Assembly (NCBI GenBank): GCA_964593365.1
Contig: CAZQGQ010000002.1
Coordinates: 21,671 to 85,670 of the forward strand
Direction: 5' to 3'
From: an uncultured Candidatus Saccharibacteria bacterium
Lineage (GTDB): Bacteria; Patescibacteriota; Minisyncoccia; Phycocordibacterales; Phycocordibacteraceae
Length of the DNA: 64,000 nucleotides
A program made the position numbers and the translations under genes. The notes beneath the pieces were generated by a model, which saw only the letters and a list, made by a program, of their open reading frames with translations, searched no databases and was not told where the DNA came from. Below are positions 2,938 to 62,966 of this stretch, in pieces (positions within the stretch are counted from its first letter, which is position 1; each line of letters starts with the position of its first letter).

Positions 2938-3662
2938 CGACGTCAGGATTCCAGATACGGACCGAGGTGTACGAGGGACCTCTCGGGGTTCTGCTTGAGC
3001 TTATCCAAGAGAGGAAACTCCTGGTGAACGACTTCTCACTCTCTAAGGTCACCGATGAGTTCATTGCGTATGTGCGAGGACAAGGAAAGTTCCCGATAGA
3101 GGATGCTGCTGATTTCATTCAGATCGCCGCGACGCTGCTTCTCATAAAATCGAAGTCACTTATCCCTGACCTTGAACTCTCGGGAGACGAGGAGGAAGAC
3201 ATTGATGATCTCAAGCTCCGCTTGCTTGCCTATGAGCGGGCGAGGGAAGCAGCGAAAGAACTTTCCCGCATCTTCGGGCGCTCAGTGATGGTATCTGCGG
3301 GAGAACGCCTTCCAGACGTTGTCTTTGCGCCAAGCAAGGATATGACGCTTCAGAATCTTGAACGAGCGCTTCAGGAAGCACTCGCAGCGATGGAAAAGGA
3401 AGAAAAGCTTCCTGAGACACGCGTGCGCCCCATGGTCACTATCGAAGAGATGATGGATCGCCTGATGACGCGTGTACAAAGCGCACTCACTTTGTCTTTC
3501 TCTGAGTTTTCAGGAGGAGTGAAAGAGAAGGTGGAGGTGATCGTTTCGTTCCTAGCGATGCTTGAGCTTGTAAAGCAGGGAGCGATTGACGTTGCCCAGC
3601 ATGGGACGTTTTCGGAGATACGAATTACGAATACAACAGCGGATCTGCCTAAGTACGAATAG
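2925..3662 (+). CDS. scpA: Segregation and condensation protein A
   Basis: 245 aa. N-terminal YEGPLGVLLELIQ matches the ScpA FEGPLDLL signature. Confidence 0.8.
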   Translation: MESVATSGFQIRTEVYEGPLGVLLELIQERKLLVNDFSLSKVTDEFIAYVRGQGKFPIEDAADFIQIAATLLLIKSKSLIPDLELSGDEEEDIDDLKLRLLAYERAREAAKELSRIFGRSVMVSAGERLPDVVFAPSKDMTLQNLERALQEALAAMEKEEKLPETRVRPMVTIEEMMDRLMTRVQSALTLSFSEFSGGVKEKVEVIVSFLAMLELVKQGAIDVAQHGTFSEIRITNTTADLPKYE

Positions 3663-11270: not shown

Positions 11271-11322
11271 GCCATACAAGCGATTATTGTCTCGTCGAGA
11301 ACGTCTAGGTATACTAGACGGG

Positions 11323-12597
11323 ATGAGACTGATCGCTCTTTTGCTTATTAGCGTTGCTCTTCTTGGAGCAATCGCCACGAGCACTCCACTTCCGACTCAT
11401 GCCGAGTCTATCGATGAGATCAAGGACCGGATTGATGAGATCAATCGCGAGCGCGCGAAGATAGACGAAGAAATCGCCGGATACCAGCGGGAGCTTAACG
11501 TCATCTCAGGACAGAAGCAGACACTCCAGTCTGCGATCCAGACGCTTGATGTCTCCCGCTCCAAGACTTCTGCGCAGATAAAAGAGATTCAAAACAAAAT
11601 CGGGGCAGCAACGCTTCGCCTTGAAGAGCTTTCATTTGAGATCACCGACAAGGAACAATCCATCGCGCTTGATCAGTCCACCGTCGCCGCATCGCTTCGT
11701 GCAATCGATATCGCGGACCAGGTTTCTTTTGTCGAGCGGCTTGTTGGAGCGGATGATTTTGCAGCAGCGTGGACCTCTATTGATAACCTCGCGACCTTGA
11801 ATCAATCGCTCCAGGAGCATGCTGCCTTGCTTGCAGGAGCAAAGATCGCGCTAGCAGAGCAGCAGACTTCCGTTTCTTCGACCAAGAATGAGCTCGCTTC
11901 TCATAGCGTTAATCTTGAAAGCCAGAAACAAGCGTTGGATATCAACCGACAAGGAAAGCAGACGCTTCTTTCACAGACCCAAGCGACCGAAAGCCAGTAC
12001 CAGGCAATGATCGCAGAGAAGCGCCGTCAGCAAGCCGCTTTCGAAGCCCAGCTCTTTACATACGAAGCGCAATTGAAACAAGCACTCGATCCTTCTTCCA
12101 TTCCAAGCGCAGGCTCTGGCGTTCTCGCATCTCCATTGGATAGCGTCTTTGTCACGCAGTATTTTGGTAGAACGGTTGATGCAAAGCGATTGTACGTATC
12201 TGGAACGCACGGCGGCATAGATTACCGAGCAACGATTGGCACGCCAATCAAAGCGTCTCTCACGGGAGTCGTCACCGATGTTGAAAGCACGAAGACTAAG
12301 AGTGGTTGCCAATACGGTAAGTGGGTACTCTTGAAACACGCGAACGGGCTCTCTACGCTTTATGGCCACCTTTCGTCAGTGAACGTTTCTCCAGGACAAA
12401 CTGTTTCAACAGGGGATCCGATAGGGCACAGCGGGGACACGGGATATGCAACCGGGCCGCACCTTCACTTTGGTGTGTATGCCACCTCCGGTATTCGTAT
12501 CGTTGACGCCTCCGCGCTTGGCTCTACGTACTGCGCAGGCATCAAGACCGTTGCATCTAACCCTGACGCATACCTTGATCCGATGTCGTATCTTTAG
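11323..12597 (+). CDS. M23-family peptidase with N-terminal signal peptide and coiled-coil (EnvC-like)
   Basis: About 425 aa from the ATG at 11323. The ORF track opens at a TTG at 11287. C-terminal HGGIDY ... GHSGDTGYATGPHLHFGVY LytM motifs. Upstream lies TTGTCT-17nt-TATACT-7nt-ATG. Confidence 0.8.
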   Translation: MRLIALLLISVALLGAIATSTPLPTHAESIDEIKDRIDEINRERAKIDEEIAGYQRELNVISGQKQTLQSAIQTLDVSRSKTSAQIKEIQNKIGAATLRLEELSFEITDKEQSIALDQSTVAASLRAIDIADQVSFVERLVGADDFAAAWTSIDNLATLNQSLQEHAALLAGAKIALAEQQTSVSSTKNELASHSVNLESQKQALDINRQGKQTLLSQTQATESQYQAMIAEKRRQQAAFEAQLFTYEAQLKQALDPSSIPSAGSGVLASPLDSVFVTQYFGRTVDAKRLYVSGTHGGIDYRATIGTPIKASLTGVVTDVESTKTKSGCQYGKWVLLKHANGLSTLYGHLSSVNVSPGQTVSTGDPIGHSGDTGYATGPHLHFGVYATSGIRIVDASALGSTYCAGIKTVASNPDAYLDPMSYL

Positions 12598-12627
12598 GTT
12601 CGAATCCTAGCTAGCCAGAAAAATAAG

Positions 12628-12652
12628 GAGCCCCCGGATATACCGAGGGCTC
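12628..12652 (-). terminator. Hairpin GAGCCCCCGG-atata-CCGAGGGCTC; on the minus strand it is followed by a T-run
   Basis: 10-bp stem with one mismatch. Plus-strand AGAAAAATAA immediately upstream gives TTATTTTTCT after the hairpin on the minus strand. Sits 7 nt past the stop of the minus-strand ORF 12659..12862. Confidence 0.5.
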
Positions 12653-12658
12653 AAGGTT

Positions 12659-12862
12659 CTATGCCACTCCTTTCTTAAACTTGTTACGAATCGAATCAAA
12701 GATCCACAGAGTCAGACCCCCGACTGCAATCGAACATATCCAAAGGAATATAACGACTTCATAGTAGACTCTTCTAATTCCAGTCGGCTTGTTCCTCACA
12801 TAGCGAACCGAGTCGTAAGAGATACACATGGATTTCTCCTTTGAAGATCCACTTCCTGCCAA
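12659..12862 (-). CDS. Hypothetical small membrane protein (67 aa)
   Basis: ORF with one hydrophobic helix (VVIFLWICSIAVGGLTLWIF). Bracketed by two terminator-like hairpins. Coding status uncertain. Confidence 0.3.
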   Translation of the reverse strand: MAGSGSSKEKSMCISYDSVRYVRNKPTGIRRVYYEVVIFLWICSIAVGGLTLWIFDSIRNKFKKGVA

Positions 12863-12892
12863 GGACCATTCCCTAGCAGGGTGGTAGACCCA

Positions 12893-12923
12893 AAAGAAAA
12901 ACCCCGTGGAGACGGGGTTTTTC
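12893..12923. terminator. Bidirectional rho-independent terminator AAAAACCCCGTGGAGACGGGGTTTTT
   Basis: Perfect 6-bp GC stem CCCCGT/ACGGGG with a GGAG loop, flanked by an A-run and a T-run. Confidence 0.65.
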
Positions 12924-13078
12924 AGATGAGTTCTAGAAAGAAATGTCTAGGATACAGAGAAAGCGCCACCGTCGGGGTTTACGATGGGCGGTACGGGAAG
13001 TGCAAAAATGTGCGCTTTCGTATTCATGTTTAAGCAGAATAGCTTAGAAGTTCTAATAAATCAAGTACGTTATATAGG

Positions 13079-13104
13079 TTTCAACATTGTCCCATACAGC
13101 CAGC
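13079..13104 (+). repeat. Island box copy 1 (TTTCAACATTGTCCCATACAGCCAGC)
   Basis: Followed by TATAAT, then 6 nt, then the ATG at 13117. Confidence 0.6.
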
Positions 13105-13116
13105 TATAATAACGGT

Positions 13117-13923
13117 ATGGACAGCACTTCTGCCTCCGACCTTACGAAACGCAATAAAGAAGTCATTCAAAGATTTATTGACTCGGTTAGAGACCGTGCA
13201 GACGGCGTTTTGCTTAGCGGGTCAAACGCCTGGGGAGCGGACTATGCGGTTACCGAGAAATCGGATATCGATCTCTTGGTCCTGGCAAAGGATATCCAAG
13301 GCATGAAGAAAATAATCGATTGCTATATCAGTAATAAATTACTTGTACCTAGGGAGCAAGAACGATTTGAAGCATTTAGCGCGCTATATGAGGAAGGAAG
13401 AGTAGAACAATTTTCTGTGATTGCAGACTATAAGGGTGTTCCGGTGAGCATAGATTTCTTTACCACAAAAACATTACAGTGGATCAGTTTCTTAACTTCA
13501 AAAAATACTGTTCTTCTTAACGGCGTGAGAGTGAGAGTCGTAAGCGAGTTGCGAACAAATCCTCCAAAAGCTTTCGGCTATTCTCTTGATGATTTACAAA
13601 GCTCAAAGAAACTTACCTATCATCCGGTGTTCGAAGAAATAAAAAGTCAGAAAGGCAATGTCTGTGGGTACCTCGCGCAAACTGCAGTCGATGCCTCTGA
13701 TGAACATACTTACTATCTTGGCGTCATGTCGTTTTTCCTTTGTGTCAGTCCGGTCGTGCTATTAGATAAAAACGGCGAACTGCAACGAGCTATACGAGAT
13801 TTGCGAACAAACATCTCAATTCTTTTGAAAGGGGAAGTTCCTCGCCATGTGACAAGAGAAGAACGAATGTCTGAGCAGGTCTTAGAAGAGGTAAAGAATG
13901 CCCTTAGTCCTAAGGGAGCCTAA
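13117..13923 (+). CDS. Pol-beta superfamily nucleotidyltransferase (antibiotic or nucleotide NTase-like; specificity unknown)
   Basis: 268 aa from the ATG at 13117. The track opens at a TTG at 13087 that lies inside the upstream box. GS-x14-DID motif (LSGSNAWGADYAVTEKSDIDLLVL) with a downstream acidic residue (VSIDFF). The helical C-terminal half is similar in size to ANT/Lnu-type or Abi-type NTases. GC is lower than in the core genes. Confidence 0.55.
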   Translation: MDSTSASDLTKRNKEVIQRFIDSVRDRADGVLLSGSNAWGADYAVTEKSDIDLLVLAKDIQGMKKIIDCYISNKLLVPREQERFEAFSALYEEGRVEQFSVIADYKGVPVSIDFFTTKTLQWISFLTSKNTVLLNGVRVRVVSELRTNPPKAFGYSLDDLQSSKKLTYHPVFEEIKSQKGNVCGYLAQTAVDASDEHTYYLGVMSFFLCVSPVVLLDKNGELQRAIRDLRTNISILLKGEVPRHVTREERMSEQVLEEVKNALSPKGA

Positions 13924-13928
13924 AAAGA

Positions 13929-13954
13929 TTCCAACATCGTCTCAGGCAGCCAGC
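13929..13954 (+). repeat. Island box copy 2 (TTCCAACATCGTCTCAGGCAGCCAGC)
   Basis: Lies between the convergent NTase and transglutaminase-like genes. Followed by a weak TATTTT. Confidence 0.55.
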
Positions 13955-14451
13955 TATTTTCTACGTTCATTCTCTAACCACTCGTTAAAAGCAGCATAGA
14001 ACTCTCCGTTGAGAGCAAGGTCTTTATTAATGACCTCCACGTTCTCATCGGCGATAATTGCAGCACTTTCTTTAATGGAGAACAATTTTAAACAAGAAAC
14101 CGCGATAGACGTGTTCGACTTTCCGTCCCACTCACTGACAGGAAGAATCATACTCAAAGAATTATCCCAGGTCGCATCGACATTAATCCAGTCTTTTTCA
14201 TTAAGTACCTCAAGGTATGCATGGGTAGAAGCATCTTCGTGAGCCTTTCCTGACACCTCAACGGGAAGATTGATATCGCTCCATTTGAAGGAACATACGC
14301 GCCATCGTACCTGAAGCCCCTCCTTCTCAAGAAGCGACTTAAGCTGCTTATGTTTACCGGTACAGGATTTGTCAGTTTCCTTCGAGGTTAGCGGAATTCG
14401 ATAGGGAATATCCCGAACCTGATTGAAAATCTCACGTAGGTCGGCTCTCAT
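13954..14451 (-). CDS. Transglutaminase-like / papain-fold cysteine peptidase domain protein
   Basis: 165 aa. Putative Cys nucleophile in SCTGKH, then the H-A-Y-L-E-V ... W-I-N-V-D-A-T-W-D block characteristic of the transglutaminase-like core (Cys-His-Asp). Upstream on its own strand lies TTGGAA-16nt-TAGCAT-6nt-ATG. Confidence 0.5.
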   Translation of the reverse strand: MRADLREIFNQVRDIPYRIPLTSKETDKSCTGKHKQLKSLLEKEGLQVRWRVCSFKWSDINLPVEVSGKAHEDASTHAYLEVLNEKDWINVDATWDNSLSMILPVSEWDGKSNTSIAVSCLKLFSIKESAAIIADENVEVINKDLALNGEFYAAFNEWLENERRK

Positions 14452-14479
14452 ACCCCCATGCTAGCAGGTGCTTGGCAAG

Positions 14480-14505
14480 TTCCAACATCGTCCCAGACAG
14501 CCAGG
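14480..14505 (+). repeat. Island box copy 3 (TTCCAACATCGTCCCAGACAGCCAGG)
   Basis: In the divergent gap between the transglutaminase-like gene and the zinc-ribbon gene, about 155 nt upstream of the ATG at 14661. Confidence 0.6.
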
Positions 14506-14660
14506 GTTGCATGGCTTAAGCGAAAGGAATCTATCGATGTGTACAACAAAGAATCAACTTACAGTCCGTCCACTCTTGCGGATTGATCTGTATGTAAATG
14601 ACCATAATCTTGTGTTTCCGATTTTAATATGTTTTAATCCAATAAACATAACTCCTACTC

Positions 14661-15071
14661 ATGCCTGATTATCAAAAGCCTCGCTTTGCCAAAAAACCCT
14701 TTAACCGTGGGGGTCAAGATCGTTTTAGCGATTCAAAAGAGATGCACAAAACTAACTGCAGCAAATGTAACAATCTGTGCGAAGTACCGTTTCGCCCAAA
14801 CGGCAAGAAACCAGTTTTCTGCAGCAACTGTTTCGTCAAAGACGATGCGCCCCGTCCTTCATATGGTCCGAAGCGTGATTTTTCTCCACGTCCATCTTTT
14901 AGCCCAGCGCCTTCTCGCGATGACCATGGGATGCAGGATCTAAAAATGCAGATGCAAGGCGTAAACGACAAGCTTACCCAGCTCATTCAACTTATGGAAT
15001 CTGCCCAGGCGCCTGTTACTGAGAAGGCTTCAGTAAAAAGGGTAGCCAAAGCAGGGACTAAGAAGAAATAA
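14661..15071 (+). CDS. Hypothetical zinc-ribbon protein with a low-complexity Pro/Ser linker
   Basis: 136 aa. CSKCNNLCEVPFRPNGKKPVFCSNCF resembles a topoisomerase-type C4 zinc ribbon. Basic C-terminal tail. Confidence 0.4.
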   Translation: MPDYQKPRFAKKPFNRGGQDRFSDSKEMHKTNCSKCNNLCEVPFRPNGKKPVFCSNCFVKDDAPRPSYGPKRDFSPRPSFSPAPSRDDHGMQDLKMQMQGVNDKLTQLIQLMESAQAPVTEKASVKRVAKAGTKKK

Positions 15072-15110
15072 TAGCCAGTATCTCCACAAGGCATATTCTC
15101 TAAGCAAGGT

Positions 15111-15136
15111 TCCAACGTCGTCCCAGACAACCGGCT
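15111..15136 (+). repeat. Island box copy 4 (TTCCAACGTCGTCCCAGACAACCGGC)
   Basis: Followed by TATACT, then 6 nt, then the ATG at 15153. Confidence 0.6.
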
Positions 15137-15152
15137 CGTTTATACTAGTCCT

Positions 15153-15557
15153 ATGAAGATATATCTCGGTTGTTCACTTACTCAAGCTCCAGAGGACTTT
15201 AAGACCGTTATTGGAGACTTAAAGAACAGGCTCCGGCAGGACTACGACGTATTAGACTTCATTGGTACCGTCGCTGGCACACCTCATGAGGTCTACAACT
15301 GGGATATTCACGAATGCGTTGCAAAGTGCGATGCCTTCATTGCGATTTGCGATCTGCCAGCCATAGGTCTTGGTTATGAACTCAGTGTCGCAGTCGAGAA
15401 GCTCAAGAAGCCGACGCTCGCTCTTGCGCATACGGATGCGAAAATCTCACGTCTTCTTCTTGGTATCAAACAGCCTCACTACATATTTGAACGCTACGAT
15501 TCTTTTGACGAGGTGGAAGACCGGATCAGATTATTCCTAAGCAGTTTAGAGAAATAA
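15153..15557 (+). CDS. Nucleoside 2-deoxyribosyltransferase-like (NDT-like) Rossmann-fold protein
   Basis: 134 aa. N-terminal MKIYLGCS and the block AIGLGYELSVAVEKLKKP match the NDT signature (KIYFAG ... GLGMELGYA..GK). Confidence 0.5.
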   Translation: MKIYLGCSLTQAPEDFKTVIGDLKNRLRQDYDVLDFIGTVAGTPHEVYNWDIHECVAKCDAFIAICDLPAIGLGYELSVAVEKLKKPTLALAHTDAKISRLLLGIKQPHYIFERYDSFDEVEDRIRLFLSSLEK

Positions 15558-15558
15558 G

Positions 15559-15584
15559 TTGCAAGGTCGGCCCAGACTGGGGCA
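15559..15584 (+). repeat. Island box copy 5 (TTGCAAGGTCGGCCCAGACTGGGGCA)
   Basis: The core CCCAG-A-CTGGG is a perfect inverted repeat here. A TTTATAT sequence lies 4 nt before the ATG at about 15616. Confidence 0.5.
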
Positions 15585-15615
15585 CGTGGTACTGTTTTAG
15601 AAACTTTATATCCCT

Positions 15616-16479
15616 ATGTCTGTCGCAATTGGTGTCTTGCTTGCCTTGATAGCCCTCGTCGCATGGGGTTTGGGGGACTTTTTAATTCAGAGAACTACCA
15701 GGCTGGTAGGTAGCGCCAAGGCTCTTTTCTTCATAGGAGTTGTTGCATTCGTTGTTTTGTTTCCGTTTGTACTACACGAACTTCCACATCTCACGTTCGC
15801 AAACTACCTCTTGCTCGGGACGCTGTCTTTAGCGGTTATCTTCGGAGCAGCTTTTGACTTCGAGGCTCTGCGCACCGGCAAAATGGCCGCTGTTGAACCA
15901 GTGGTGGGTCTTGAGCTTCCGATGACGGTCATTCTGAGCGTCATCTTCGTAGGTGAACATCTAACAGGACATCAGCTCTTTTGGATGCTTCTCGTGTTCA
16001 TTGGAACGGGGCTTACGGTTACAAAAAGCATAAGCCACTTGTCACAGGCATTCGAAAAGGGAGTGTGGCTCGCCTTTCTAGCAGCAATTGGTACAGCGTT
16101 AACTTCGCTCTTGGTTGGTATGTCGAGTCAGGAGATTTCTCCACTCGTTTCTATATGGTTTTCGCACGGGACGTTAGCGCTCGTGTCGGGTCTGTATATT
16201 CTTCGTTCTGGCCAGATGAGATCCGTTATACAAGATATCCGCAGCCACCCTGTAACTATTGGCTGCCAAAGCGTCTTTGATAACCTCGCGTGGATTGCTT
16301 TTGCCATTGCAGCAACCCTTATTCCGATCTCAATCGCTACGACCATTAGCGGGGGATATGTTGCCCTTGGGGTACTGCTTGGTATTTTCGTAAGCCGCGA
16401 GCGTGTTCGTGGTCATCAGGCGTTCGGTATTGCGCTTGTATCGATTGGCATTATTGCTCTCTCCTATTATTTCAGCTAG
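15616..16479 (+). CDS. EamA/DMT-family transporter
   Basis: 287 aa, about 10 TM. GDFLIQR-type EamA signature and two internally repeated halves. Confidence 0.7.
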   Translation: MSVAIGVLLALIALVAWGLGDFLIQRTTRLVGSAKALFFIGVVAFVVLFPFVLHELPHLTFANYLLLGTLSLAVIFGAAFDFEALRTGKMAAVEPVVGLELPMTVILSVIFVGEHLTGHQLFWMLLVFIGTGLTVTKSISHLSQAFEKGVWLAFLAAIGTALTSLLVGMSSQEISPLVSIWFSHGTLALVSGLYILRSGQMRSVIQDIRSHPVTIGCQSVFDNLAWIAFAIAATLIPISIATTISGGYVALGVLLGIFVSRERVRGHQAFGIALVSIGIIALSYYFS

Positions 16480-16484
16480 CAAGA

Positions 16485-16510
16485 TTTCCATGTCGTTCCA
16501 GGCAATTAAT
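16485..16510 (+). repeat. Island box copy 6 (TTTCCATGTCGTTCCAGGCAATTAAT)
   Basis: Followed by TACTATATT, then 4 nt, then the ATG at 16534. Confidence 0.5.
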
Positions 16511-16533
16511 AACAATCTGTTACTATATTCCGC

Positions 16534-17073
16534 ATGAAAGTCATCATCGCTTCCCACAATCCTGTGAAAATCAATGCCGCTAGGGAAGCGTTCAAGCAAA
16601 TGTTTCCGGGAGAGACATTTGAGGTTATAGGGACTGATGTTCCTTCAGACGTTTCTGACCAACCTATGACCGACACTGAGACGTATACCGGTGCTGTAAA
16701 CCGCGCGGAAAACGCTTCCCAGAAAGAGAGCGATGCTGACTTCTGGGTAGGAATCGAGGGCGGATTAGAAGAGAAAAGTGGAGATCTTGAATGTTTCGCG
16801 TGGGTGGTAATAAAAGATAAAGACGGAACGATTGGCAAAGGAAGAAGCGCCGCGTTCTTTTTGCCGCCTGCGGTAGCCCAGAAGATCCGTGAGGGAATGG
16901 AACTCGGGCATGCAGCGGACGCAGTTTTTAACGAGACCAACCTGAAGCAAAACCAAGGCACCGTTGGCATGCTCACGAAGGGATTAATCGAGAGGACGAA
17001 GTACTATGTCGATCCGGCGATTATGGCGTTAATCCCGTTTGCGAACCCTTCGCTGTTTGGAAAAACTGGCTAA
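16534..17073 (+). CDS. Inosine/xanthosine triphosphatase, YjjX family
   Basis: 179 aa. NPVKINAAREAF, DFWVGIEGG and GMLTKGLIERT closely follow the E. coli YjjX pattern. Confidence 0.75.
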   Translation: MKVIIASHNPVKINAAREAFKQMFPGETFEVIGTDVPSDVSDQPMTDTETYTGAVNRAENASQKESDADFWVGIEGGLEEKSGDLECFAWVVIKDKDGTIGKGRSAAFFLPPAVAQKIREGMELGHAADAVFNETNLKQNQGTVGMLTKGLIERTKYYVDPAIMALIPFANPSLFGKTG

Positions 17074-17087
17074 GCTCAATTCTTTGT

Positions 17088-17543
17088 ATGGATCAAGGCA
17101 TTCTAGACTACATTAAATCCCAGCGAATCTCCGTGTTTGGAATCGAGATGCTTGATGGTTCACCACATGGTGCAACAGTACATTTCGCACATCAAGAGAA
17201 CCCGTTAACTTTCATATTTGAAACGAGTTCGAAATACCGCAAGAGCGAGCCCTTGCTCGCCAACGACACAGCCCGAGCAACGCTCGTCATTGGATTTGTT
17301 GAAGGGCCGACTGAAAAAACATTCCAAGCAGACGGGATCGCAACGTTGCTTACGAGTGATGACCAGCTAAAGAAAGTCTATCTGTCGAAGTTTCCAGAAA
17401 AGGAAGCAAAGGCAGGAGATCCAGACAACATTTTCTTCTCCTTCACTCCAACATGGTGGAGATTCACTGATTGGGGCCGACCAGAAGGGAAGACCGTTAT
17501 CACTTCAGACGGCAAAGTAGTTGTCGCAGGGAAGTCTGCTTAA
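17088..17543 (+). CDS. Pyridoxamine 5'-phosphate oxidase-like (split-barrel, FMN-binding) family protein
   Basis: 151 aa. Size and hydrophobic periodicity resemble PNPOx-like or general-stress-protein-26 folds. Only 14 nt downstream of the ITPase gene, so probably co-transcribed. Confidence 0.4.
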   Translation: MDQGILDYIKSQRISVFGIEMLDGSPHGATVHFAHQENPLTFIFETSSKYRKSEPLLANDTARATLVIGFVEGPTEKTFQADGIATLLTSDDQLKKVYLSKFPEKEAKAGDPDNIFFSFTPTWWRFTDWGRPEGKTVITSDGKVVVAGKSA

Positions 17544-17545
17544 AG

Positions 17546-18160
17546 CTATTTAGTATCCCGGCTCTTCCAAAGGATTCGGCAGGCGAGCGAGCGGTACGGA
17601 GACCAGCAAGCAGATATCTTCTCAAGCTTTGCCCGTGACGGGTTCTTGATCATATACAGATCTTCAATAGAGCGTACGAGCCCAAGGTCTCCTGCAGAGA
17701 AAATGTCCGGATGCTGAAGCGCGAACATGAGAAACATCTCGCTCGTCCAGGGGCCAATGCCCCATACTGCAGTTAATGTTTCTTCTGCTTCTTCCGGGGA
17801 CTTCTTGCGAAGGGAAGGGAGGTCGAGTCCTTTGGTAACCGCTTTTGCGAGTTCTTTTAAGGTCTTTGCTTTTGCGCTGGAGAGTCCGGCTTTGCGAAGG
17901 CGGGGAAGAGAAGTCTTCAGTACTGACGAAGGAGTGACCTTGCCTCCGCACACACTTTCTACCCGAGCCCAAATAGCGTCCGCTGCCTTCACGGCTAGCT
18001 GCTGGCTTACGACTGATTCAGCAAGCGCCGCGAACAAGCGATCAGACCCGCGTACTTGAGGACGTCGCAGAATAAGTTTCCGGTGACTGTACGCAGCTTG
18101 GTACATGATTGGATCGACGCGCTTGAAGTGGCGAAGAGCGTTAGGGAGATCAGGATGCAT
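17546..18160 (-). CDS. alkA: DNA-3-methyladenine glycosylase II-like (HhH-GPD)
   Basis: 204 aa. Helix-hairpin-helix motif VWGIGPWTSEMFLMFAL followed by a catalytic Asp in SAGDLGL. Confidence 0.7.
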   Translation of the reverse strand: MHPDLPNALRHFKRVDPIMYQAAYSHRKLILRRPQVRGSDRLFAALAESVVSQQLAVKAADAIWARVESVCGGKVTPSSVLKTSLPRLRKAGLSSAKAKTLKELAKAVTKGLDLPSLRKKSPEEAEETLTAVWGIGPWTSEMFLMFALQHPDIFSAGDLGLVRSIEDLYMIKNPSRAKLEKISACWSPYRSLACRILWKSRDTK

Positions 18161-18167
18161 AGTGAAG

Positions 18168-18186
18168 TTGATTATACCCAGGAGCC
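18168..18186 (+). repeat. Degenerate island box copy 7 (TTGATTATACCCAGGAGCC)
   Basis: Retains the CCCAG-GAGCC core. Followed by TATATAAT, then 7 nt, then the ATG at 18224. Confidence 0.3.
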
Positions 18187-18223
18187 TTCCTTTTTACGCA
18201 CGTTAGGCTATATAATCCGTCGT

Positions 18224-18421
18224 ATGGTACGCCTCATTATCTGGATCGTTATTGGGCTTCTGGCCCTCTCATTTTTTGGCATCTCCCTTCGAGCACTCGT
18301 TGATAACCCAACAAACCAGGACAATTGGTCCTTTTTACTAGCCTTGCTCCGAGACGGCTGGGACTATATAACCGCTTGGTTTGAAGATGCATTCCGCCCG
18401 ATCGCTCAGTGGTTCGACTAA
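18224..18421 (+). CDS. Hypothetical small membrane protein (65 aa)
   Basis: Internal ATG of track ORF 18056..18421. The earlier part of that ORF is antisense to alkA. One TM helix (LIIWIVIGLLALSFFGI). Confidence 0.45.
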   Translation: MVRLIIWIVIGLLALSFFGISLRALVDNPTNQDNWSFLLALLRDGWDYITAWFEDAFRPIAQWFD

Positions 18422-18513
18422 ATCTTCATAAAGTCTTCATTGTTCTTGTTGTATTACTTGGGTACCGGGTTCCTTTACTGGAACCCCATTTGTCCATTTA
18501 CTTTTACCCTCGT

Positions 18514-18741
18514 ATGAAGACAGTGGCACTGGCAGCAACGCTTTTCCTCGTAGGACCCGCACTCGCAATGGCCGCCACGTACGCATATGTGAACACAGCA
18601 GGAGAAGTGATGTCTGTGGAAGCTTCAACAGCTACCCAGGCTCTCACTACAGCTCCAAACCTTCACGTTCATAGCGGCGTGATGCTTGTTGACGGCTCAG
18701 ATGATTCTGAAGTCATCGGAGACGACGTTCCTGGAACCTAA
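18514..18741 (+). CDS. Hypothetical small secreted protein (about 75 aa)
   Basis: Internal ATG of track ORF 18409..18741. Signal-peptide-like N-terminus MKTVALAATLFLVGPALAMA. Confidence 0.4.
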   Translation: MKTVALAATLFLVGPALAMAATYAYVNTAGEVMSVEASTATQALTTAPNLHVHSGVMLVDGSDDSEVIGDDVPGT

Positions 18742-18767
18742 AGAAAAGATAAACCGGTTTATTTGTT

Positions 18768-18797
18768 AAACTCCCGGAGTCATGACTTCGGGAGTTT
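18768..18797. terminator. 30-nt near-perfect palindrome AAACTCCCGGAGTCATGACTTCGGGAGTTT
   Basis: 9-10 bp stem AAACTCCCG/CGGGAGTTT with a self-complementary loop AGTCATGACT. Lies 27 nt after the stop of the small secreted protein. Could be a terminator or a protein-binding site. Confidence 0.5.
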
Positions 18798-18872
18798 AGC
18801 GTTTCTCCTTGCTTCATGAATAAGTTCACAAACTCGCTCATAATCGTCTTCGACCCTATACTTTAGAGACAT

Positions 18873-19739
18873 ATGCATACCTCACGTCTACATCTTTCAG
18901 TGTTAGGAATCCTCATGTTTTCTCTCATCTTCTTTCCAAGCAGCACCTTCGCTGCAGTTAAGGGAGAATTTGACCAGGCGTCCCTTATTTCAACGACAAC
19001 CCGCCCAACTTTGAGCGGCGAGATCTCTGGAGCCTCTGTCGTGCGTGTTCTTGTTGAAAACGAGAAGGGAAAGAATGTCTATAAGAGTAAGGACATCAAG
19101 GCAAAGGGCGGGGAGTGGAAAACCAAGGTTTCTAAGCTCCTCACCGTTGGAAAGTACAAAGTCACCCTCTACAGCGTTCAAAGCGGTAAGCAAAGCATTG
19201 TTACCACAGGAACCCTTACGATCTTGTCTAAGAAAGGAACTCCGACGACCTCATCCTCAGGAACAAAGAAGCCTACGACAAGCTCTGCGAGTGGCGGAAC
19301 TCTCTCAGCTTCTCCAGTCCCGCTTTTGTGGGGCGGTAACGCAGCGCACGGAGCCTCGATCCCTGTTGCATACGTGAAGCTTATAAATACTGGCAAGACC
19401 ACAACTTCAATTGATGGGTTCCGCCTTATAGAAAATGGATCCGCTCCTGACGATGTTGTTATCGGGTTCTCAGTAAGCGACGATAAGGGCGGCTCGCGCG
19501 CAACGATAGGAGGTTTCGAAGGATCAAAACAATTCAACAAAGGCTCAGCCTTCGTTCCGCTTCCTGCAACGCTTGCACCCGGACAGCTGCGCATCTTTAC
19601 GATAAAAGCGATTTTGAGTCGCGATAGCGGCATTCACTTTGGCAAACAACTTTTGATAGATGTCGCTGGAGTTGAAGGCAAAGCATCTACCAAAGGCACC
19701 TTCCCGATGCGCGGCACCACTTGGACGCTTACGTACTAA
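18873..19739 (+). CDS. Hypothetical secreted protein with signal peptide and Ser/Thr-rich linker
   Basis: 288 aa. N-terminal hydrophobic signal ending FAA. Central run TPTTSSSGTKKPTTSSASGG. Confidence 0.5.
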   Translation: MHTSRLHLSVLGILMFSLIFFPSSTFAAVKGEFDQASLISTTTRPTLSGEISGASVVRVLVENEKGKNVYKSKDIKAKGGEWKTKVSKLLTVGKYKVTLYSVQSGKQSIVTTGTLTILSKKGTPTTSSSGTKKPTTSSASGGTLSASPVPLLWGGNAAHGASIPVAYVKLINTGKTTTSIDGFRLIENGSAPDDVVIGFSVSDDKGGSRATIGGFEGSKQFNKGSAFVPLPATLAPGQLRIFTIKAILSRDSGIHFGKQLLIDVAGVEGKASTKGTFPMRGTTWTLTY

Positions 19740-20232
19740 CGAAGAACGCTCCAGCATAGCTAGAGCGTAAAAACCGACGCGAGGGTCAAGGTGGGCGATG
19801 TGCGGCGGGAAAGCAATTTACCGGACCCGCACAAACATCAACCCTCGCATCGGCGACGGCACGGGAAGCATTAGGGCCGAGAGGGAGGAACGGGGCGGGG
19901 ATGTTCCTAACTCGAAGCTTGTCTGCAACCCGTGACGCTTCGAGGATATTGGACTAGGGAACCAGCTGTGTCAAGAATGTTTTACTTTCAGTATTAGACA
20001 GGGAAGTCAGGTACAGAAAACGCCCCCGAAAAGTTGGAGGCGCAAATGCGGACATGGGAACCAAGGGAGCATAGTCGTGCTGCACGAATCGCGGTGTGGT
20101 AGCGGACACCATTTGCCTTCACGACTACCTTGGCCCCATGCCGCAGACAGATACTAGGCTTTATGAAGTATCTCGTCAAATGGAGGCTTCACTACAACAC
20201 ATCTCGGTCGACCGAGATTAGGTTCTAGAGCA
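19740..20232. other. 490-nt ORF-free GC-rich region with several perfect stem-loops (candidate structured ncRNA; class not identified)
   Basis: Nested helices GCGAGGGT(19778)/ACCCTCGC(19848) enclosing GTGCGG/CCGCAC. Further hairpins CTCGAAGC/GCTTCGAG (19911-19942) and AGGAAC/GTTCCT. An 18-bp palindrome lies at 20201-20218. On the minus strand the large stem is followed by GTCGGTTTTT. Confidence 0.3.
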
Positions 20233-20496
20233 GTGTATGCTTATAGAATGGACTTTAACGCAATGCCTAAGCTTATATGTGATGCCTGGCACCTGAATAA
20301 CAATCGGGTGTGGTTCTTCTTCGGTTTTACCTCAGGAACTGATAAATCAGCCCTCCTTCTCAGTCCTAAAGGCGCTAAGGGCTTCCTTCTCGAGCTCCAG
20401 AAGCGAATTACTAAGTACGAGAAAGACCATGGGGAGATAGATATGACCGGCCATCAAGCAGGAATTCAGTCTCCAATACAAATAAAGCCGGAGTAA
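20233..20496 (+). CDS. Hypothetical protein (87 aa)
   Basis: ORF directly downstream of the perfect palindrome. No recognisable motif. Confidence 0.35.
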   Translation: MYAYRMDFNAMPKLICDAWHLNNNRVWFFFGFTSGTDKSALLLSPKGAKGFLLELQKRITKYEKDHGEIDMTGHQAGIQSPIQIKPE

Positions 20497-20842
20497 AGGA
20501 TCAGAAGCCGTTTTCCTTGTTCCCTTAGGAGTACTTCGCAAAAGATATATTGTGCGAAGGTCTTATATTTTAGGTCAGATAAGCTTAGGGATCTCCGTTC
20601 AATATGTCTTCCCCACCTAATGAGCAGTCTTTATAACTTAAACTGGTTATGCGAACACTCGCTCTCATTTCTCCACTTTGTAAAAGATGTACTGCTATAA
20701 ATCCCCTCTCAGTAGGGTACTGGGGGAGAGTTGAGAGACGATTTAGGTAAAAAACTGAAAAAGATCTCTGACTCCCCTACCCTAATCTATTTCACTAAAA
20801 TCGACACCTTTAACATTTGAGTGTTCAGTTGAAAGAAATTAA

Positions 20843-21511
20843 CTAAAATAACTTCTTTCTACTTTCTTTCATCACCTTAACCCCTGGTTTCGCATACTCA
20901 ATTGATTCCATCCGAGCCAAATCTGCGTGAGGGACAGCTTCCAACTCCTCAGTTAATTCGCTACAAAGAACGTCAAATCTTGATTCAACGTACATTCTCG
21001 TTTTTGTAATCAGCAACTCAAGGTTTTGTATATTTTCTGAAGTATTCATTTCTGCACTAAAACTCACACCTATAATCTTAGCTATCTTGAAAGGCGCTCC
21101 TGGCTTATTAATCACTGCGCCTGGTAGACATTGCATTAAAGGGTTATCATCGTGAGCTATATTTTTATCCCTTAGATCCTTGAAAAACTCGAAAACTTCC
21201 TGACCCATAAGGTCTCCTTTTAGGACCTCTTCCTTGAATAGCTGCGTAGCTCTTGCATTATTTTTTCCAAAACATTTAAGAAAACTAATCACAGCCAACC
21301 GCCAGAAGACTTTTTGTTCAAGGCTTCTATCTTCTGCATTCTTCAAAGCTACCAAACAGTCTTGAGCTGTTATCAGATCGTGTCTGTGGAGAGTCATATC
21401 TGCCAACTCCTGGGCTTTCTTGCCTCGCAGCGCGACTGCTTTAAGTGCGTCCGGGAAGTCAGTTAGACGCAGACCTGTTCCCTCTTGGTGCTCAATGTTT
21501 AATTGCTGCAT
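20843..21511 (-). CDS. Hypothetical protein with a putative HEPN-like Rx5H motif (third gene of the AT-rich operon)
   Basis: 222 aa. Strong SD (GGAGGGGAAG) 8 nt upstream. Sequence FFKDLRDKNIAHDDNP contains R-x5-H. GC about 38-40%. Confidence 0.45.
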   Translation of the reverse strand: MQQLNIEHQEGTGLRLTDFPDALKAVALRGKKAQELADMTLHRHDLITAQDCLVALKNAEDRSLEQKVFWRLAVISFLKCFGKNNARATQLFKEEVLKGDLMGQEVFEFFKDLRDKNIAHDDNPLMQCLPGAVINKPGAPFKIAKIIGVSFSAEMNTSENIQNLELLITKTRMYVESRFDVLCSELTEELEAVPHADLARMESIEYAKPGVKVMKESRKKLF

Positions 21512-21551
21512 ACCAGCATCCTACTTCCCCTCCCTCTCTAAACAAACATAT

Positions 21552-21887
21552 CTAAGAACCAAGAATATCTTTCAAAACTTGATCAAAACCGTGCAATTTG
21601 CCCTGCAGAACACCAAAAAGGGTGGTCAACTTTTCTTTACCTTCAGGACCGAAAACGTCTTCTCCAAAACGAAGGTAAGTTTGCTCGTCTTCTTTTGAAG
21701 CGTAGAAGTACATATGATAATCTCCGTCTTCATCTTGCATTATTGACCATAAGTATTTATTGCCGGGATAAGTAAAGAAATATTCTTCTGCGTTCTCGAC
21801 AGGTGTTGTAGGTTTTCGCACTGATTGGATTTGATCCTGATCAGATAACATTTTTTTCACAACGTCTTGTATTTGTTTGTCATTCAT
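21552..21887 (-). CDS. Hypothetical protein (second gene of the AT-rich operon)
   Basis: 111 aa from the internal ATG, which lies 1 nt after the upstream stop. The track ORF extends to 21920. Acidic, Tyr-rich, no known motif. Confidence 0.4.
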   Translation of the reverse strand: MNDKQIQDVVKKMLSDQDQIQSVRKPTTPVENAEEYFFTYPGNKYLWSIMQDEDGDYHMYFYASKEDEQTYLRFGEDVFGPEGKEKLTTLFGVLQGKLHGFDQVLKDILGS

Positions 21888-21888
21888 A

Positions 21889-22404
21889 TTATTTTTGTTG
21901 TTTTGAAGTATGATTTTCAATCTCTAAGGTTGTGAGTCGTTCCTTCAACTCCGTGCATAAACTTATTTTATCCGTTTCATTAACTGTTCGTCCAGCATCC
22001 AGTTCATCTATCATTATTTTAATAGGTTTTAACACTTTTGTACCCATGTGTTTTTGTAATATTTCGTTTCCACGAATCTTTCCATGAATACGAGCAAGGG
22101 TTACTCGCACAGCACGTGGGTTAGGAGGGTCTTCGATTGAATGCTCATTTAACTTCTCTATTAAGTGATTTAAATCTGAAAGAGAGGTTCTTAAAGAATA
22201 ACTAAGTAACAGGGAAAAGGCTGCAGAAATCTTCTTTCTCTGTGTTAAGCCGATAACGAACGCAGCAATACCAAGTAGAACCTGAACAATGTCAGCGCTA
22301 AATGATGTCAAGGCAACTATGAATGTTGCAGTGCTGGTGGACACTAATCTAAAATAGCATAAAAAATCGAGCCGCCCGTAATCTCTTGTACCGACTTCGT
22401 ACAA
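21889..22404 (-). CDS. Hypothetical membrane protein, 2 TM plus a cytoplasmic domain (first gene of the AT-rich operon)
   Basis: 171 aa. Hydrophobic helices FIVALTSFSADIVQVLLGIAAFVIGL. Confidence 0.4.
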   Translation of the reverse strand: MYEVGTRDYGRLDFLCYFRLVSTSTATFIVALTSFSADIVQVLLGIAAFVIGLTQRKKISAAFSLLLSYSLRTSLSDLNHLIEKLNEHSIEDPPNPRAVRVTLARIHGKIRGNEILQKHMGTKVLKPIKIMIDELDAGRTVNETDKISLCTELKERLTTLEIENHTSKQQK

Positions 22405-22440
22405 CGCAGATTGTGCACCTCCTGTTATACTCCTGGCTAT

Positions 22441-22917
22441 ATGGCAGAGAACGGCGAACCAGACGGCAAATCTAAGCTTATAAAGGAGTTAGAGGTCGCT
22501 GGCCAACTTGAGTCTATTAAGACGCAACTCACAACCGCGGTTGAGAAGCGTAAACGCGCTCGAGAGTTCCTAGCGATCCGAAAGGACATTCTCACCAGGC
22601 TTGAAGAGAAGTTCGCTGCAAACCCCAATATCACGAAAGGAGAAGTCGTTTTGGACATAGGAGCATGGGCAACGACCGAAGAAGAGATGCATAAAAACAA
22701 TTCCAAGGCTACGGAGATTTTTGAGAAACTTACTGCCTCGTATCCAGAAGAAGATCTTGATGAGGACGTTCCTGAAAACGATACGGATCAAGAAGGTCTC
22801 GATACCCTTTCAAACGAGTTCCAAGACCTAACGCTCCTGGTCTTTCAAGAAACACAAGAAATGGAGCCGCAGGTGCAGCGTCTCCGAGTACTCATAGACA
22901 AGCTACGACAGTCTTAG
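22441..22917 (+). CDS. Hypothetical acidic coiled-coil protein, divergent from the AT-rich operon
   Basis: About 158 aa from MAENGEPD. The track opens at 22411. Strongly acidic C-terminal half (EEDLDEDVPENDTDQEGLD). Confidence 0.4.
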   Translation: MAENGEPDGKSKLIKELEVAGQLESIKTQLTTAVEKRKRAREFLAIRKDILTRLEEKFAANPNITKGEVVLDIGAWATTEEEMHKNNSKATEIFEKLTASYPEEDLDEDVPENDTDQEGLDTLSNEFQDLTLLVFQETQEMEPQVQRLRVLIDKLRQS

Positions 22918-23663
22918 CACTGCGTGTTCGCGACGATGTACTCGTACGCTTCATCTACTGAATCAACGAGCTTGTAGAGATCCATATCCGCCTCATCGAT
23001 CGCGTGATACTGCTCATAGAGCTTCGTCTTGAAGTGGTGCAAGACTGGTGTCCAGTATTCCTTACCGTAGAGCACGATCGGAATCTTCTTTATGTTCCTC
23101 GTCTGCACAAGCGTAAGGATCTCTGTGAACTCGTCCATGGTGCCAAAACCTCCTGGGAAGTAGATGTAGACCTCAGAAGCAAACGTAAGCATCACCTTGC
23201 GCACGAAGAAGTGATCGAACATGAGCTGCTCCGTGACGTAGCGGTTGGTGGACTGGTTGTCTGCGAGGCGGATATTCAAACCAACAGATGCACCTCCCGC
23301 TTCAAATGCCCCGCGATTGGCTGCTTCCATGATGCCTGAAGCGCCTCCGGTAATGATCGAGAACCCGCGCTTGGAAAGGCGCGCTGCAAGATCCGTCGCG
23401 TCTTGGTAGAGCTTGCTGTCAAAGGTTGCACGGGTAGTACCGAAAAAAGATGCTGCAAGCGCGTGCTTTTGCAGGAGTTCGAATCCTTCCACGAATTCGG
23501 ACATGATCTTGAATACGCGCCACGGTTCAAGCTCGCGAGGCTTACACACCAGAGGATTAGGCTCCTCGGGTACCGAGCCCTTCCCTTCCTCGACCATGCG
23601 CGCGACTTTGAGCCCCATCTGCTGATGCTCTGCCGGTGTTTTTGGTTTCAAGTCGTCAGCCAT
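22914..23663 (-). CDS. LOG-family protein (cytokinin riboside 5'-monophosphate phosphoribohydrolase-like; TIGR00730)
   Basis: 249 aa. ITGGASGIMEAANRGA and FPGGFGTMDEFTEIL motifs. Confidence 0.8.
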   Translation of the reverse strand: MADDLKPKTPAEHQQMGLKVARMVEEGKGSVPEEPNPLVCKPRELEPWRVFKIMSEFVEGFELLQKHALAASFFGTTRATFDSKLYQDATDLAARLSKRGFSIITGGASGIMEAANRGAFEAGGASVGLNIRLADNQSTNRYVTEQLMFDHFFVRKVMLTFASEVYIYFPGGFGTMDEFTEILTLVQTRNIKKIPIVLYGKEYWTPVLHHFKTKLYEQYHAIDEADMDLYKLVDSVDEAYEYIVANTQC

Positions 23664-36683: not shown

Positions 36684-36758
36684 TGGTGACCTCACGGGGA
36701 ATCGAACCCCGATTTCCAGCGTGAGAGGCTAGCGTCCTAACCGTTAGACGATGAGGCC
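36684..36758 (-). tRNA. tRNA-Glu (anticodon CUC)
   Basis: Cloverleaf: acceptor GGCCUCA/UGAGGUC, D-arm UCGUCUAACGGUUAGGAC, anticodon stem CUAGC/GCUGG with loop CUCUCAC, T-arm CGGGG-UUCGAUU-CCCCG, discriminator A, encoded CCA. Confidence 0.85.
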
Positions 36759-62855: not shown

Positions 62856-62927
62856 TCCGCGGTAGCTCAGTGGTAGAGCGGTCGACTGTTAATCGATTGG
62901 TCGTAGGTTCGAATCCTACCCGCGGAG
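62856..62927 (+). tRNA. tRNA-Asn (anticodon GUU)
   Basis: Acceptor UCCGCGG/CCGCGGA, D-arm GCUCAGUGGUAGAGC, anticodon loop CUGUUAA, T-arm GUAGG-UUCGAAU-CCUAC, discriminator G. No CCA encoded. Confidence 0.85.
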
Positions 62928-62966
62928 CAGATAGCATTACACGGTATTTCTTGGAATACTGTAAGT

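Follow-up and report, generated by a model that had tools for sequence, protein, structure and literature searches.

The 64,000-nucleotide (nt) stretch of contig CAZQGQ010000002.1 analysed here (the window) contains an interval of atypical composition, 12598-22920, between a gene for an M23 peptidase with an N-terminal coiled coil (11287-12597, + strand; Pfam Peptidase_M23, 1.8e-28) and a gene of the LOG/TIGR00730 family (22914-23663, - strand; Pfam Lysine_decarbox, 6.2e-29). A preliminary description, in which both genes were correctly located and named, regarded this interval as one accessory island. We consider it probable that the M23-LOG interval instead consists of an ancestral core with two slots of gene turnover, and that the left slot (slot 1, 12598-17545) is an array of gene cassettes delimited by a direct repeat of about 35 nt, integron-like but with a new, linear site. 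Slot 1 apparently belongs to a widespread class of repeat-delimited cassette arrays in Patescibacteria that has not been described before; searches of the literature for the motif (either strand) and for integrons, cassettes and the candidate phyla radiation (CPR) returned no prior description.

The genes in the window for glutamyl-tRNA synthetase (GluRS), the M23 peptidase, MurG, FtsW, ribosomal proteins and others identify the organism as a small-genome patescibacterium (Paceibacteria, Patescibacteria/CPR). The nearest GTDB representatives are metagenome-assembled genomes of 'Candidatus Paceibacterota', with GluRS identities of 65-67%.

Ancestral core and two variable slots

Synteny was analysed in 80 GluRS-centred loci from GTDB genomes, compared with all proteins of the window. 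The M23 gene follows the GluRS gene in 39 related loci, and the order LOG-RNase T is kept in loci L009, L010, L029, L033, L095 and L096. Both anchors are thus conserved core genes, and the interval between them varies among relatives, as previously supposed. In L009 the gene order is GluRS, M23, glycosylase (-), small membrane protein, DUF3467 protein, exported protein and Ig-like exported protein, followed further on by LOG (-) and RNase T (-), with a gap of 5 nt between the M23 and glycosylase genes; L008 and L029 have the same core. The window carries an HhH-GPD glycosylase gene (17546-18160, -; Pfam) and, syntenic in relatives, the genes for a small membrane protein (18155-18421, +), an exported small protein (18409-18741, +) and an exported Ig-like protein (18873-19739, +). 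This glycosylase-to-Ig-like block follows M23 in the same gene order in L008, L009, L029 and L141, and across 17546-19739 protein identity with relatives is 46-78%. The glycosylase and membrane protein genes are also found in L095, the closest relative (GluRS 76%, glycosylase 78% and LOG 78% identical), which was found via LOG homologues; here M23 is followed by genes for an HI0933-like flavoprotein and a protein of 64 residues, then by the glycosylase and membrane protein genes, a non-coding region, an NYN protein gene and LOG.

The shared synteny implies that 17546-19739 is ancestral and not acquired, while the cargo that differs between relatives identifies the variable parts as slot 1, between M23 and the glycosylase gene, and slot 2 (20843-22913), beside LOG. 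The relatives differ at the two slots independently. Except for one zinc-finger protein, homologues of the slot 1 and slot 2 proteins are absent from the 80 related loci.

The guanine-plus-cytosine (GC) content is 46.1% in 12598-22920 versus 53.5% for the remainder of the window. The reported drop is therefore real, but the flanking genes have 50-58% rather than 55-58%, the genes within range from 36 to 53%, and there are two troughs instead of one block. Per-gene values are 43-47% in 13117-15557, 47-53% in 15616-19739 and 36-41% in 20843-22404, and the segments 12598-15615, 17546-20232 and 20233-22913 have 44.6, 50.6 and 41.5%, respectively. The tetranucleotide composition of 2-kb windows, expressed as the z-score of their distance from the remaining sequence of the window, has maxima of 9.6 (13-15 kb) and 16.7 (20.5-22.5 kb), with z = 2-4 at 16-20 kb. 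Two troughs with a near-native middle mean that the anomaly consists of two peaks and is not a single block.

These data make it very hard to credit that 12598-22920 is essentially the product of one acquisition event between two core genes. Such an event would agree with the lower GC content of the whole interval, with the lack of homologues of most slot proteins in the related loci, and with the uniformity of the interval in its population. At least 20 contigs altogether, among them JGI (Joint Genome Institute) contigs of 647-659 kb, encode an identical LOG protein, and every contig long enough to show the M23-LOG interval has it in identical form, from which we conclude that the interval is fixed in this population. 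Against a single event stand the syntenic central block, a small-RNA region that is conserved in L095 (see below), the near-native sequence between the troughs and the independent variation at the two slots. Moreover, as the preliminary description had it, there is no tRNA gene in or beside the interval (the window has tRNA genes at 36684-36758 and 62856-62928 only), and neither the island genes (Pfam) nor the 10 kb on either side on the JGI contigs showed an integrase or transposase domain; a repeat search also found no direct-repeat pair flanking 12598-22920.

Hence, the compositional observation is upheld in part, and in place of a single island we see an ancestral core bordered by two slots of gene flux. 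Foreign composition together with absence from related loci holds for 12598-17545 and 20843-22913 but not for 17546-~20230, where the glycosylase, the small membrane protein and both exported small proteins are syntenic in relatives. A GC trough between core genes can thus conceal ancestral genes and more than one acquisition process.

A direct repeat at the gene boundaries of slot 1

The repeat has the sequence A-AAAGG-TTCCAACATCGTCCCAGACAGCC-AGCAA (short form RG-TTCCAACATCGTCCCAGACAGCC-AGC), and is nearly invariant with unrelated flanks. Its 26-nt consensus, GTTCCAACATCGTCCCAGACAGCCAG, has four matches in the window within three mismatches (0 expected by chance), starting at 13078, 13928, 14479 and 15109. 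All four are on the + strand and each is located at a consecutive gene boundary in slot 1: before the gene for a nucleotidyltransferase-like (NTase-like) protein, between this gene and a reversed gene for a protein of 165 residues, after the latter gene, and before the gene for a nucleoside 2-deoxyribosyltransferase-like (NDT-like) protein. Bit scores of the window copies were taken from an independent matrix, built from metagenome copies alone. Copy 1 (13072-13107, +, core TTTCAACATTGTCCCATACAGCC; 44.6 bits) is followed by the box TATAAT at 13105-13110, six bases and an ATG at 13117, and copy 4 (15103-15138, +; 40.9 bits) by TATACT at 15141-15146, six bases and an ATG at 15153. Copy 2 (13922-13957, +; 44.9 bits) occupies the 30-nt gap between two convergent stop codons, and copy 3 (14473-14508, +; 39.8 bits) matches the 26-nt consensus core exactly.

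When a matrix is made from these four copies, its next-best matches are at 15551-15590 and 16477-16516, i.e. at the next two gene boundaries. Because of this same-strand position we regard them as probable decayed copies 5 (15552-15587, +, AAGTTGCAAGGTCGGCCCAGAC...; 5.9 bits) and 6 (16478-16513, +, AAGATTTCCATGTCGTTCCAGGCAA...; 3.9 bits), which rank 5th and 8th among about 128,000 positions with the independent matrix. No copies were identified elsewhere in the 64-kb window, and the window copies form no hairpin (fold z of -1.4 to +1.0 versus shuffled sequences). From M23 towards the glycosylase gene the repeat quality falls, and the GC content of successive cassettes is 43, 44, 47, 46, 49 and 50/47%. 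The acquisition mechanism, previously called unclear, thereby has a concrete candidate for the left part of the interval, namely a direct repeat at gene boundaries; for the right part nothing has changed.

A scan of JGI metagenome contigs with the pattern TTNCAACRTYGTCNCAKRCARCC returned 91 stretches, 18 of which were set aside as likely chance matches, i.e. a group of 62-64% GC with conserved coding flanks, plus stretches with deviant cores. In the excluded loci L106, L117, L159, L162, L172, L175 and L187 (62-64% GC) the pattern lies inside one conserved, apparently coding sequence with shared flanks, which has no relation to the CPR repeat. A relaxed scan with a threshold of at least 22 bits (maximum in shuffled 64-kb sequence, 14) identified 188 repeat copies in 73 loci, on contigs that span 34-54% GC and derive from Antarctic mats, Hainich groundwater and other sites. 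In each of the 47 loci with at least two copies these are co-oriented, in arrays of up to 7-9 copies, and conservation breaks off abruptly at positions of about -7 and +28, counted from the start of the core. The 100 non-redundant intervals have a median length of 560 nt (interquartile range 426-803 nt, full range 49-2678 nt), and 70% of them contain exactly one open reading frame (ORF) of at least 50 residues. In these arrays 74% of the ORFs run with the repeat and 26% are reversed, and no repeat copy is inverted. Comparison of 66 instances with the 150 nt on either side gave duplex energies equal to those of shuffled sequences (p = 0.96 and 0.30) and fold z-scores of about 0. The GluRS loci of relatives (L008-L096, L095 included) have no copy of at least 22 bits; in L095, a stretch resembling the motif 5' of the flavoprotein gene was not significant. 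A virus or plasmid as vehicle was also considered; the sole IMG/VR match to a loose pattern falls below the threshold of the scoring matrix.

The clearest indication of gene exchange at the repeat comes from the contigs L140 and L145, which are 92-95% identical. L145 has a single repeat copy between DUF1059/DUF1905 genes and an EamA gene; at the same place L140 has a repeat, 845 nt with a reversed gene for a protein of 275 residues, and a second repeat. The breakpoints are +2 and -3 nt from the repeat edges. To the left of the first L140 copy, and likewise to the right of its second one, the sequence matches L145, which places the crossover inside the repeat. Upstream in the same pair, a block of differing cassettes stops exactly at a repeat edge, and homology tracts between other contigs likewise begin or end at repeat edges. 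L141, from the same series of lake-mat samples and syntenic with the window, provides further evidence for exchange at the repeat, as it has the same slot and repeat with wholly different cargo: MurG, GluRS and M23 are followed by a repeat, a cupin gene, a gene for a HAD phosphatase, a decayed repeat, and genes for a Vut_1 transporter and a protein of 178 residues, and then by the glycosylase, membrane protein and exported protein genes.

Five of the seven cassette families of the window have homologues 3' of a repeat copy in unrelated contigs, four of them within 60 nt and one at 78 nt. The zinc-finger protein is 78% identical to a homologue encoded 60 nt downstream of a copy (L182), the NDT-like protein 74% identical to one at 12 nt (L154), and the NTase-like homologue is found at 78 nt (L189). 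Directly downstream of repeat copies are homologues of the NTPase_I-T protein (32% identity; L181) and of the PNPOx-like protein (52-70% identity; L176). In the three arrays inspected gene by gene (L140, L145 and L185), the cassette genes have a lower GC content than the neighbouring core genes.

These observations also bear on the possibility that there has been no horizontal acquisition, and that the interval is native, fast-evolving DNA with low expression and AT-biased mutation in which the repeats arose by local duplication of one promoter. CPR genomes do hold many fast-evolving genes without known function, part of slot 1 is only mildly atypical in composition, and the array is fixed in its population. 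We nevertheless consider this explanation improbable, since the same repeat accompanies different cargo in dozens of unrelated contigs from other habitats, cassette homologues with 52-78% identity are located elsewhere in other genomes, the same slot is occupied by entirely different genes in L141 and L095, and tetranucleotide z-scores of 9-17 exceed what local drift could produce.

The main rival to a cassette array is a regulatory role of the repeat, as a promoter-proximal operator or an extended promoter of one conserved regulon for house-cleaning, salvage and stress with leaderless transcripts. The genes of slot 1 would then be clustered because they are co-regulated, and recombination between the repeats would be incidental. 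A TAnnnT box at 5-8 nt before a start codon occurs within 45 nt downstream in 35/77 instances (45%), as compared to 10/77 controls (13%), and window copies 1 and 4 have the arrangement TAnnnT-N6-ATG. The element is thus often positioned just upstream of apparent leaderless promoters. A regulon would also account for the NDT-like, NTPase_I-T, zinc-finger, PNPOx-like and NTase-like families 3' of the motif in different genomes, for a 27-nt core that is nearly invariant across contigs of 34-54% GC, suggesting binding by a conserved protein, and for the few copies per contig among those approaching genome size. Set against this is, first, that the distance between motif and box is not constant (5 to 12 nt or more), which means that the motif cannot supply a fixed -35 element. 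Secondly, although 26% of the array ORFs are reversed, 0/188 copies are inverted toward them, and many copies point at a reversed gene or at the terminator of a convergent gene, as window copy 2 does between its two stop codons; we therefore take the polarity of the arrays to be structural. In addition, the downstream genes are highly diverse and mostly without known function, and the decayed copies 5 and 6 precede intact genes. Finally, at strain level an insertion is flanked by two repeat copies. Array polarity and this insertion argue against a regulon operator, which we consider unlikely, although less so than native DNA or a single island. We conclude that promoter use is a frequent secondary feature of the repeat or else a design feature.

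In the window, start codons are found 4-8 nt after a TAnnnT box, without a Shine-Dalgarno sequence, at 13105-13119, 15141-15155, 15605-15618 and 16520-16536, and many repeat-bearing loci are alike in this respect. As far as can be judged from sequence, leaderless transcription seems to be a frequent trait of these accessory genes.

If the interval is indeed an ancestral core with a cassette array and a second slot, slot 1 would consist of one- or two-gene cassettes, each bounded by the direct, non-palindromic repeat. Genes would enter and leave by recombination within the repeat, of which one event is seen (L140/L145), and the cassettes would come from a pool common to CPR genomes. The newest cassettes would adjoin M23 (43-47% GC, well-kept repeats) and the older ones the glycosylase gene (47-50% GC, decayed repeats). 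Since the repeat is often placed just 5' of a -10-like box with a leaderless start, an incoming gene might be transcribed without delay. Exchange could be catalysed by a site-specific recombinase encoded in trans, or proceed by RecA-type recombination between the ~35-nt repeats after DNA uptake. Slot 2 would be a separate insertion of four low-GC genes.

Several points weigh against this reading. Copies 5 and 6 are individually within noise, and the gradient of repeat quality and GC content, which would fit M23-proximal insertion followed by slow drift to host composition, comprises six cassettes only. A single clean repeat-bounded insertion/deletion (L140/L145) has been found, this being the one informative case among contig pairs of at least 84% identity searched for further examples, and no circular or excised cassette was seen. 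There is no recombinase near the arrays examined, i.e. among the island genes, the scanned window ORFs of 225-414 residues, the 10 kb on either side on JGI contigs, and the cargo of L147, L140 and L145. The array is identical in all population variants (at least 20 contigs) and thus gives no sign of ongoing turnover; in this genome it looks old and static. The recurrence of the same families after the same motif in different genomes is also expected of a conserved regulon, and the -10 box with leaderless ATG fits a promoter role. Lastly, the scan pattern was taken from the window's own copies, which biases the sample to near-consensus copies, and the taxonomy of most repeat-bearing contigs is unverified.

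In one of the 73 loci, L120, a gene for an IS30-family transposase (176-1141; PWQRGKNENTNG signature and two N-terminal helix-turn-helix domains) lies between two direct repeat copies (at ~114 and ~1144). It is either cargo or a hint at an enzyme that acts on the repeat.

CPR bacteria have tiny genomes with few recognisable mobile elements and few integrases, and to our knowledge the route by which they acquire accessory genes is largely unclear. We tentatively propose, with rather less confidence than the interpretation of the M23-LOG interval itself, that Patescibacteria carry an undescribed cassette system with recombination at a linear site of about 35 nt, leaderless promoter placement and a pool shared across genera and habitats, which would be a functional analogue of the integron that evolved independently in the CPR. 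The enzyme would be encoded elsewhere and might be a recombinase or transposase, the L120 protein being one lead, or else the uptake and RecA machinery of naturally competent cells. If this is true, the arrays, present on dozens of contigs whose sources include Antarctic mats and groundwater, would provide a concrete, testable route of gene flux in a large uncultured radiation and a second, mechanistically distinct answer to the problem solved by integrons. If the repeat is regulatory instead, a nearly invariant 27-nt motif before leaderless accessory genes in genomes of 34-54% GC would still be among the first conserved cis-elements defined for these organisms. On the practical side, the repeat offers an easy means of locating, by sequence, the variable gene content of metagenome-assembled CPR genomes.

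Genes of the slots and neighbouring features

Slot 1 begins with a leader (12598-13071, -) in which a terminator scan identified two hairpin terminators (12628-12652 and 12896-12923) around a small ORF (12659-12862, -), in agreement with the left edge as first described. The ORF encodes 56-67 residues with one predicted transmembrane segment and has no homologue in the related loci; the hairpin has a weak Rfam match to RsmY, which covers the hairpin only and is below the gathering score (E = 0.023). The impression that many genes have their own terminators is reduced to a modest enrichment, with 19 terminator-like sites versus 12.0 +/- 3.3 in shuffled sequences. The sequence at and after the M23 stop codon, 12594-12620 (TAGGTTCGAATCCTAGCTAGCCA), resembles the T-arm and acceptor 3' strand of a tRNA, although Aragorn calls none there. 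The tRNA-like sequence GGTTCGAATCC...AGCCAG (12596-12619) was considered as a seventh repeat copy or att site and rejected, as its gapped score of 17 is within the window noise of 18-21 and it is absent in relatives.

Cassette 1 (13117-13923, +; 43% GC) encodes the NTase-like protein of 268 residues, of the Pol-beta type by motif and fold. It has a GS...DxD motif, with G35, S36, D50 and D52 invariant in 11 homologues, and its AlphaFold2 model (predicted local distance difference test score, pLDDT, 92) is matched by Foldseek to Tam41 and ANT(4') with probability 1.0, E ~1e-3 (from 7e-4) and a template-modelling score (TM-score) of 0.33. Pfam gives no match, and we therefore regard it as a divergent member with a new beta-rich C-terminal half; the earlier NTase label is supported to this extent. 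Cassette 2 (13954-14451, -) runs opposite to the array direction, and its gene is also called on the JGI contigs. By inspection, its product of 165 residues has a possible Cys-His-Asp (transglutaminase-like) triad; no match was found in Pfam, PADLOC, PHROGs or PDB. Cassette 3 (14661-15071, +) encodes a treble-clef zinc-finger protein with a CxxC-x17-CxxC motif (Pfam zf_Tbcl_2, 5e-14; TIGR04272).

Cassette 4 (15153-15557, +) encodes the NDT-like protein of 134 residues, possibly a member of the nucleoside 2-deoxyribosyltransferase/DNPH1 superfamily. Neither Pfam nor NCBIfam gave a match, and the name given to it earlier is backed by sub-threshold PDB matches alone: nine of the ten are to Rcl/DNPH1-type proteins, over the same region, all with E = 0.1-0.9. 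Cassette 5 (15616-16479, +; 49% GC) is a gene for an EamA-family transporter (Pfam EamA, 6.5e-19), and cassette 6 has two genes, for an NTPase_I-T protein (ITPase/XTPase, YjjX-type; 16534-17073, +; PF01931, 6e-60, covering positions 1-161 of 162) and a PNPOx-like protein (17088-17543, +; Pfam, 4.7e-7). The ITPase and DNA glycosylase labels of the preliminary description were correct, whereas the nucleotide-centric content it saw mixes the ancestral glycosylase with acquired genes.

Slot 2 contains the genes for proteins of 222 residues (20843-21511, -) and 111-122 residues (21552-21920, -), a transmembrane protein of 151-171 residues (21889-22404, -) and, divergently oriented, an acidic coiled-coil protein of 158-168 residues (22411-22917, +). 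With 41.5% GC and z up to 16.7 it is the strongest compositional outlier of the window. It has no boundary repeats, and its proteins gave nothing above noise in Pfam, NCBIfam, PADLOC and PHROGs; a defence-system or phage origin of the genes of unknown function was rejected, as the PADLOC and PHROGs matches were at noise level.

The 222-residue protein seemed rare with 10 relatives in a word-indexed search, but an exhaustive profile search (E <= 1e-3) found 1478 clusters at 50% identity, i.e. a widespread, uncharacterised family. Residues R87, R114, H120 and D121 are invariant in 59 members, giving a motif R-x5-HD that resembles, at the sequence level, the Rx4-6H motif of HEPN proteins. The structural model is helical but has a pLDDT of 68, and no significant match was found with Foldseek, PDB sequences, Pfam or PADLOC. 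In L089 (1392-4614, on a contig of 39.5% GC), a homologue is found 5-9 kb from genes for a large serine recombinase and an N6/N4 methyltransferase and a terminase-like gene. These neighbours suggest, no more, that this homologue is within or beside a mobile element. A conserved neighbourhood of the gene was also looked for, but the genes around it in L089 and L092 bear no relation to those of slot 2.

Slot 2 is located between LOG and a conserved intergenic element, shared with L095 and L096, of which a hairpin TACTTCGCAAAAGATATATTGTGCGAAG (20531-20558, +) and a box GACTCCCCTACCCTA (20770-20784, +) are recognisable. The element abuts LOG in L096 (10918-11196), and in L095 there are two copies around the NYN gene (2004-2259 and 3389-3550); it may mark the insertion point of slot 2. 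Folding of 20500-20842 gave no indication of a structured RNA (z = -1.2 and +0.1). To the left is an ORF of 82-87 residues (20233-20496, +), whose status is uncertain: it was considered as the ancestral DUF3467 gene, but the Pfam match is sub-threshold and BLASTP detects no similarity to the true DUF3467 genes of relatives.

Between the Ig-like protein gene and this ORF is an intergenic, structured non-coding region of 464 nt (19769-20232, -), whose fold z versus shuffled sequences is -8.4 for the minus and -4.3 for the plus strand. It includes a candidate small RNA of about 220 nt (~20008-20228, -) with a 5' hairpin, a long stem and an intrinsic terminator (20020-20043, -); another long terminator hairpin is located at 19769-19860 (-). 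Positions 19944-20219 are conserved in L095 (nhmmer, 7e-10), and the long stem has three compensatory pairs between the window and L095. The region has no Rfam match at E <= 10 and no further sequence homologues in 91 loci.

Outside the interval, composition dips at 62-64 kb (48.7% GC, tetranucleotide z = 3.6), adjoining the tRNA-Asn gene at 62856-62928, and at 1-2 kb (48.5% GC, z = 2.2); these could be other variable regions. The window also encodes two full-length MreB paralogues (47577-48632, -, and 57380-58393, -; each ~1e-131 to PF06723) and MreC, all within 11 kb.

Comparison with known systems

Of the systems with which slot 1 can be compared, CRISPR (clustered regularly interspaced short palindromic repeats) is clearly different, with regular repeats of 23-50 nt and short non-coding spacers, whereas the intervals here are 49-2678 nt long and contain ORFs. 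Putative mobile promoters and repeated intergenic elements that bring promoters, such as the Correia elements of Neisseria, share with the repeat the property of an identical short intergenic sequence before non-homologous genes, often in promoter position. However, the repeat lacks terminal inverted repeats or a hairpin, forms ordered, co-oriented arrays with one gene per interval, and is also found where no downstream gene can be driven.

Classical islands integrated at tRNA genes are similar in that their content is accessory, atypical in composition and missing at the site in close relatives. Here, in contrast, there is no tRNA/tmRNA target, integrase or flanking direct repeat, ancestral genes interrupt the interval, and acquisition looks gene by gene.

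Closer in organisation are the Xer dif/pdif modules, which are small, are bounded by copies of a site of about 28 nt, and depend on a recombinase encoded elsewhere by the host; a host recombinase of this type would explain the lack of a local integrase. The dif site differs in having two inverted 11-nt arms with a 6-nt spacer, and pdif modules alternate in orientation, while the repeat is direct in all copies and, by inspection, has no dyad symmetry beyond GTT..AAC.

Integrons, above all CALINs (clusters of attC sites lacking integron-integrases) and sedentary chromosomal integrons, share the most features with slot 1 and its relatives. These include short, co-oriented cassettes (median 560 nt) that are separated by a repeated site and for the most part contain one ORF without a functional label; a minority of cassettes are reversed and older sites are decayed. 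They also include different cargo at the same chromosomal slot in relatives and an insertion flanked by two site copies. The attC site is an imperfect palindrome that folds into a single-strand hairpin (R''-L''...L'-R'), and a complete integron also has the tyrosine recombinase IntI, with attI beside the first cassette. Fold, Rfam and recombinase-domain scans detected here neither an attC-like structure nor an adjacent IntI, the defining features of integrons, although CALINs are also without an integrase. Whereas attC is conserved in structure, variable in sequence and 57-141 nt long, the site described here is linear, conserved in sequence and about 35 nt long, has no hairpin or paired partner, and lacks the GTTRRRY/RYYYAAC boxes. 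Moreover, integrons rely on a single Pc promoter, while many of the cassettes described here seem to bring their own -10 box and leaderless start.

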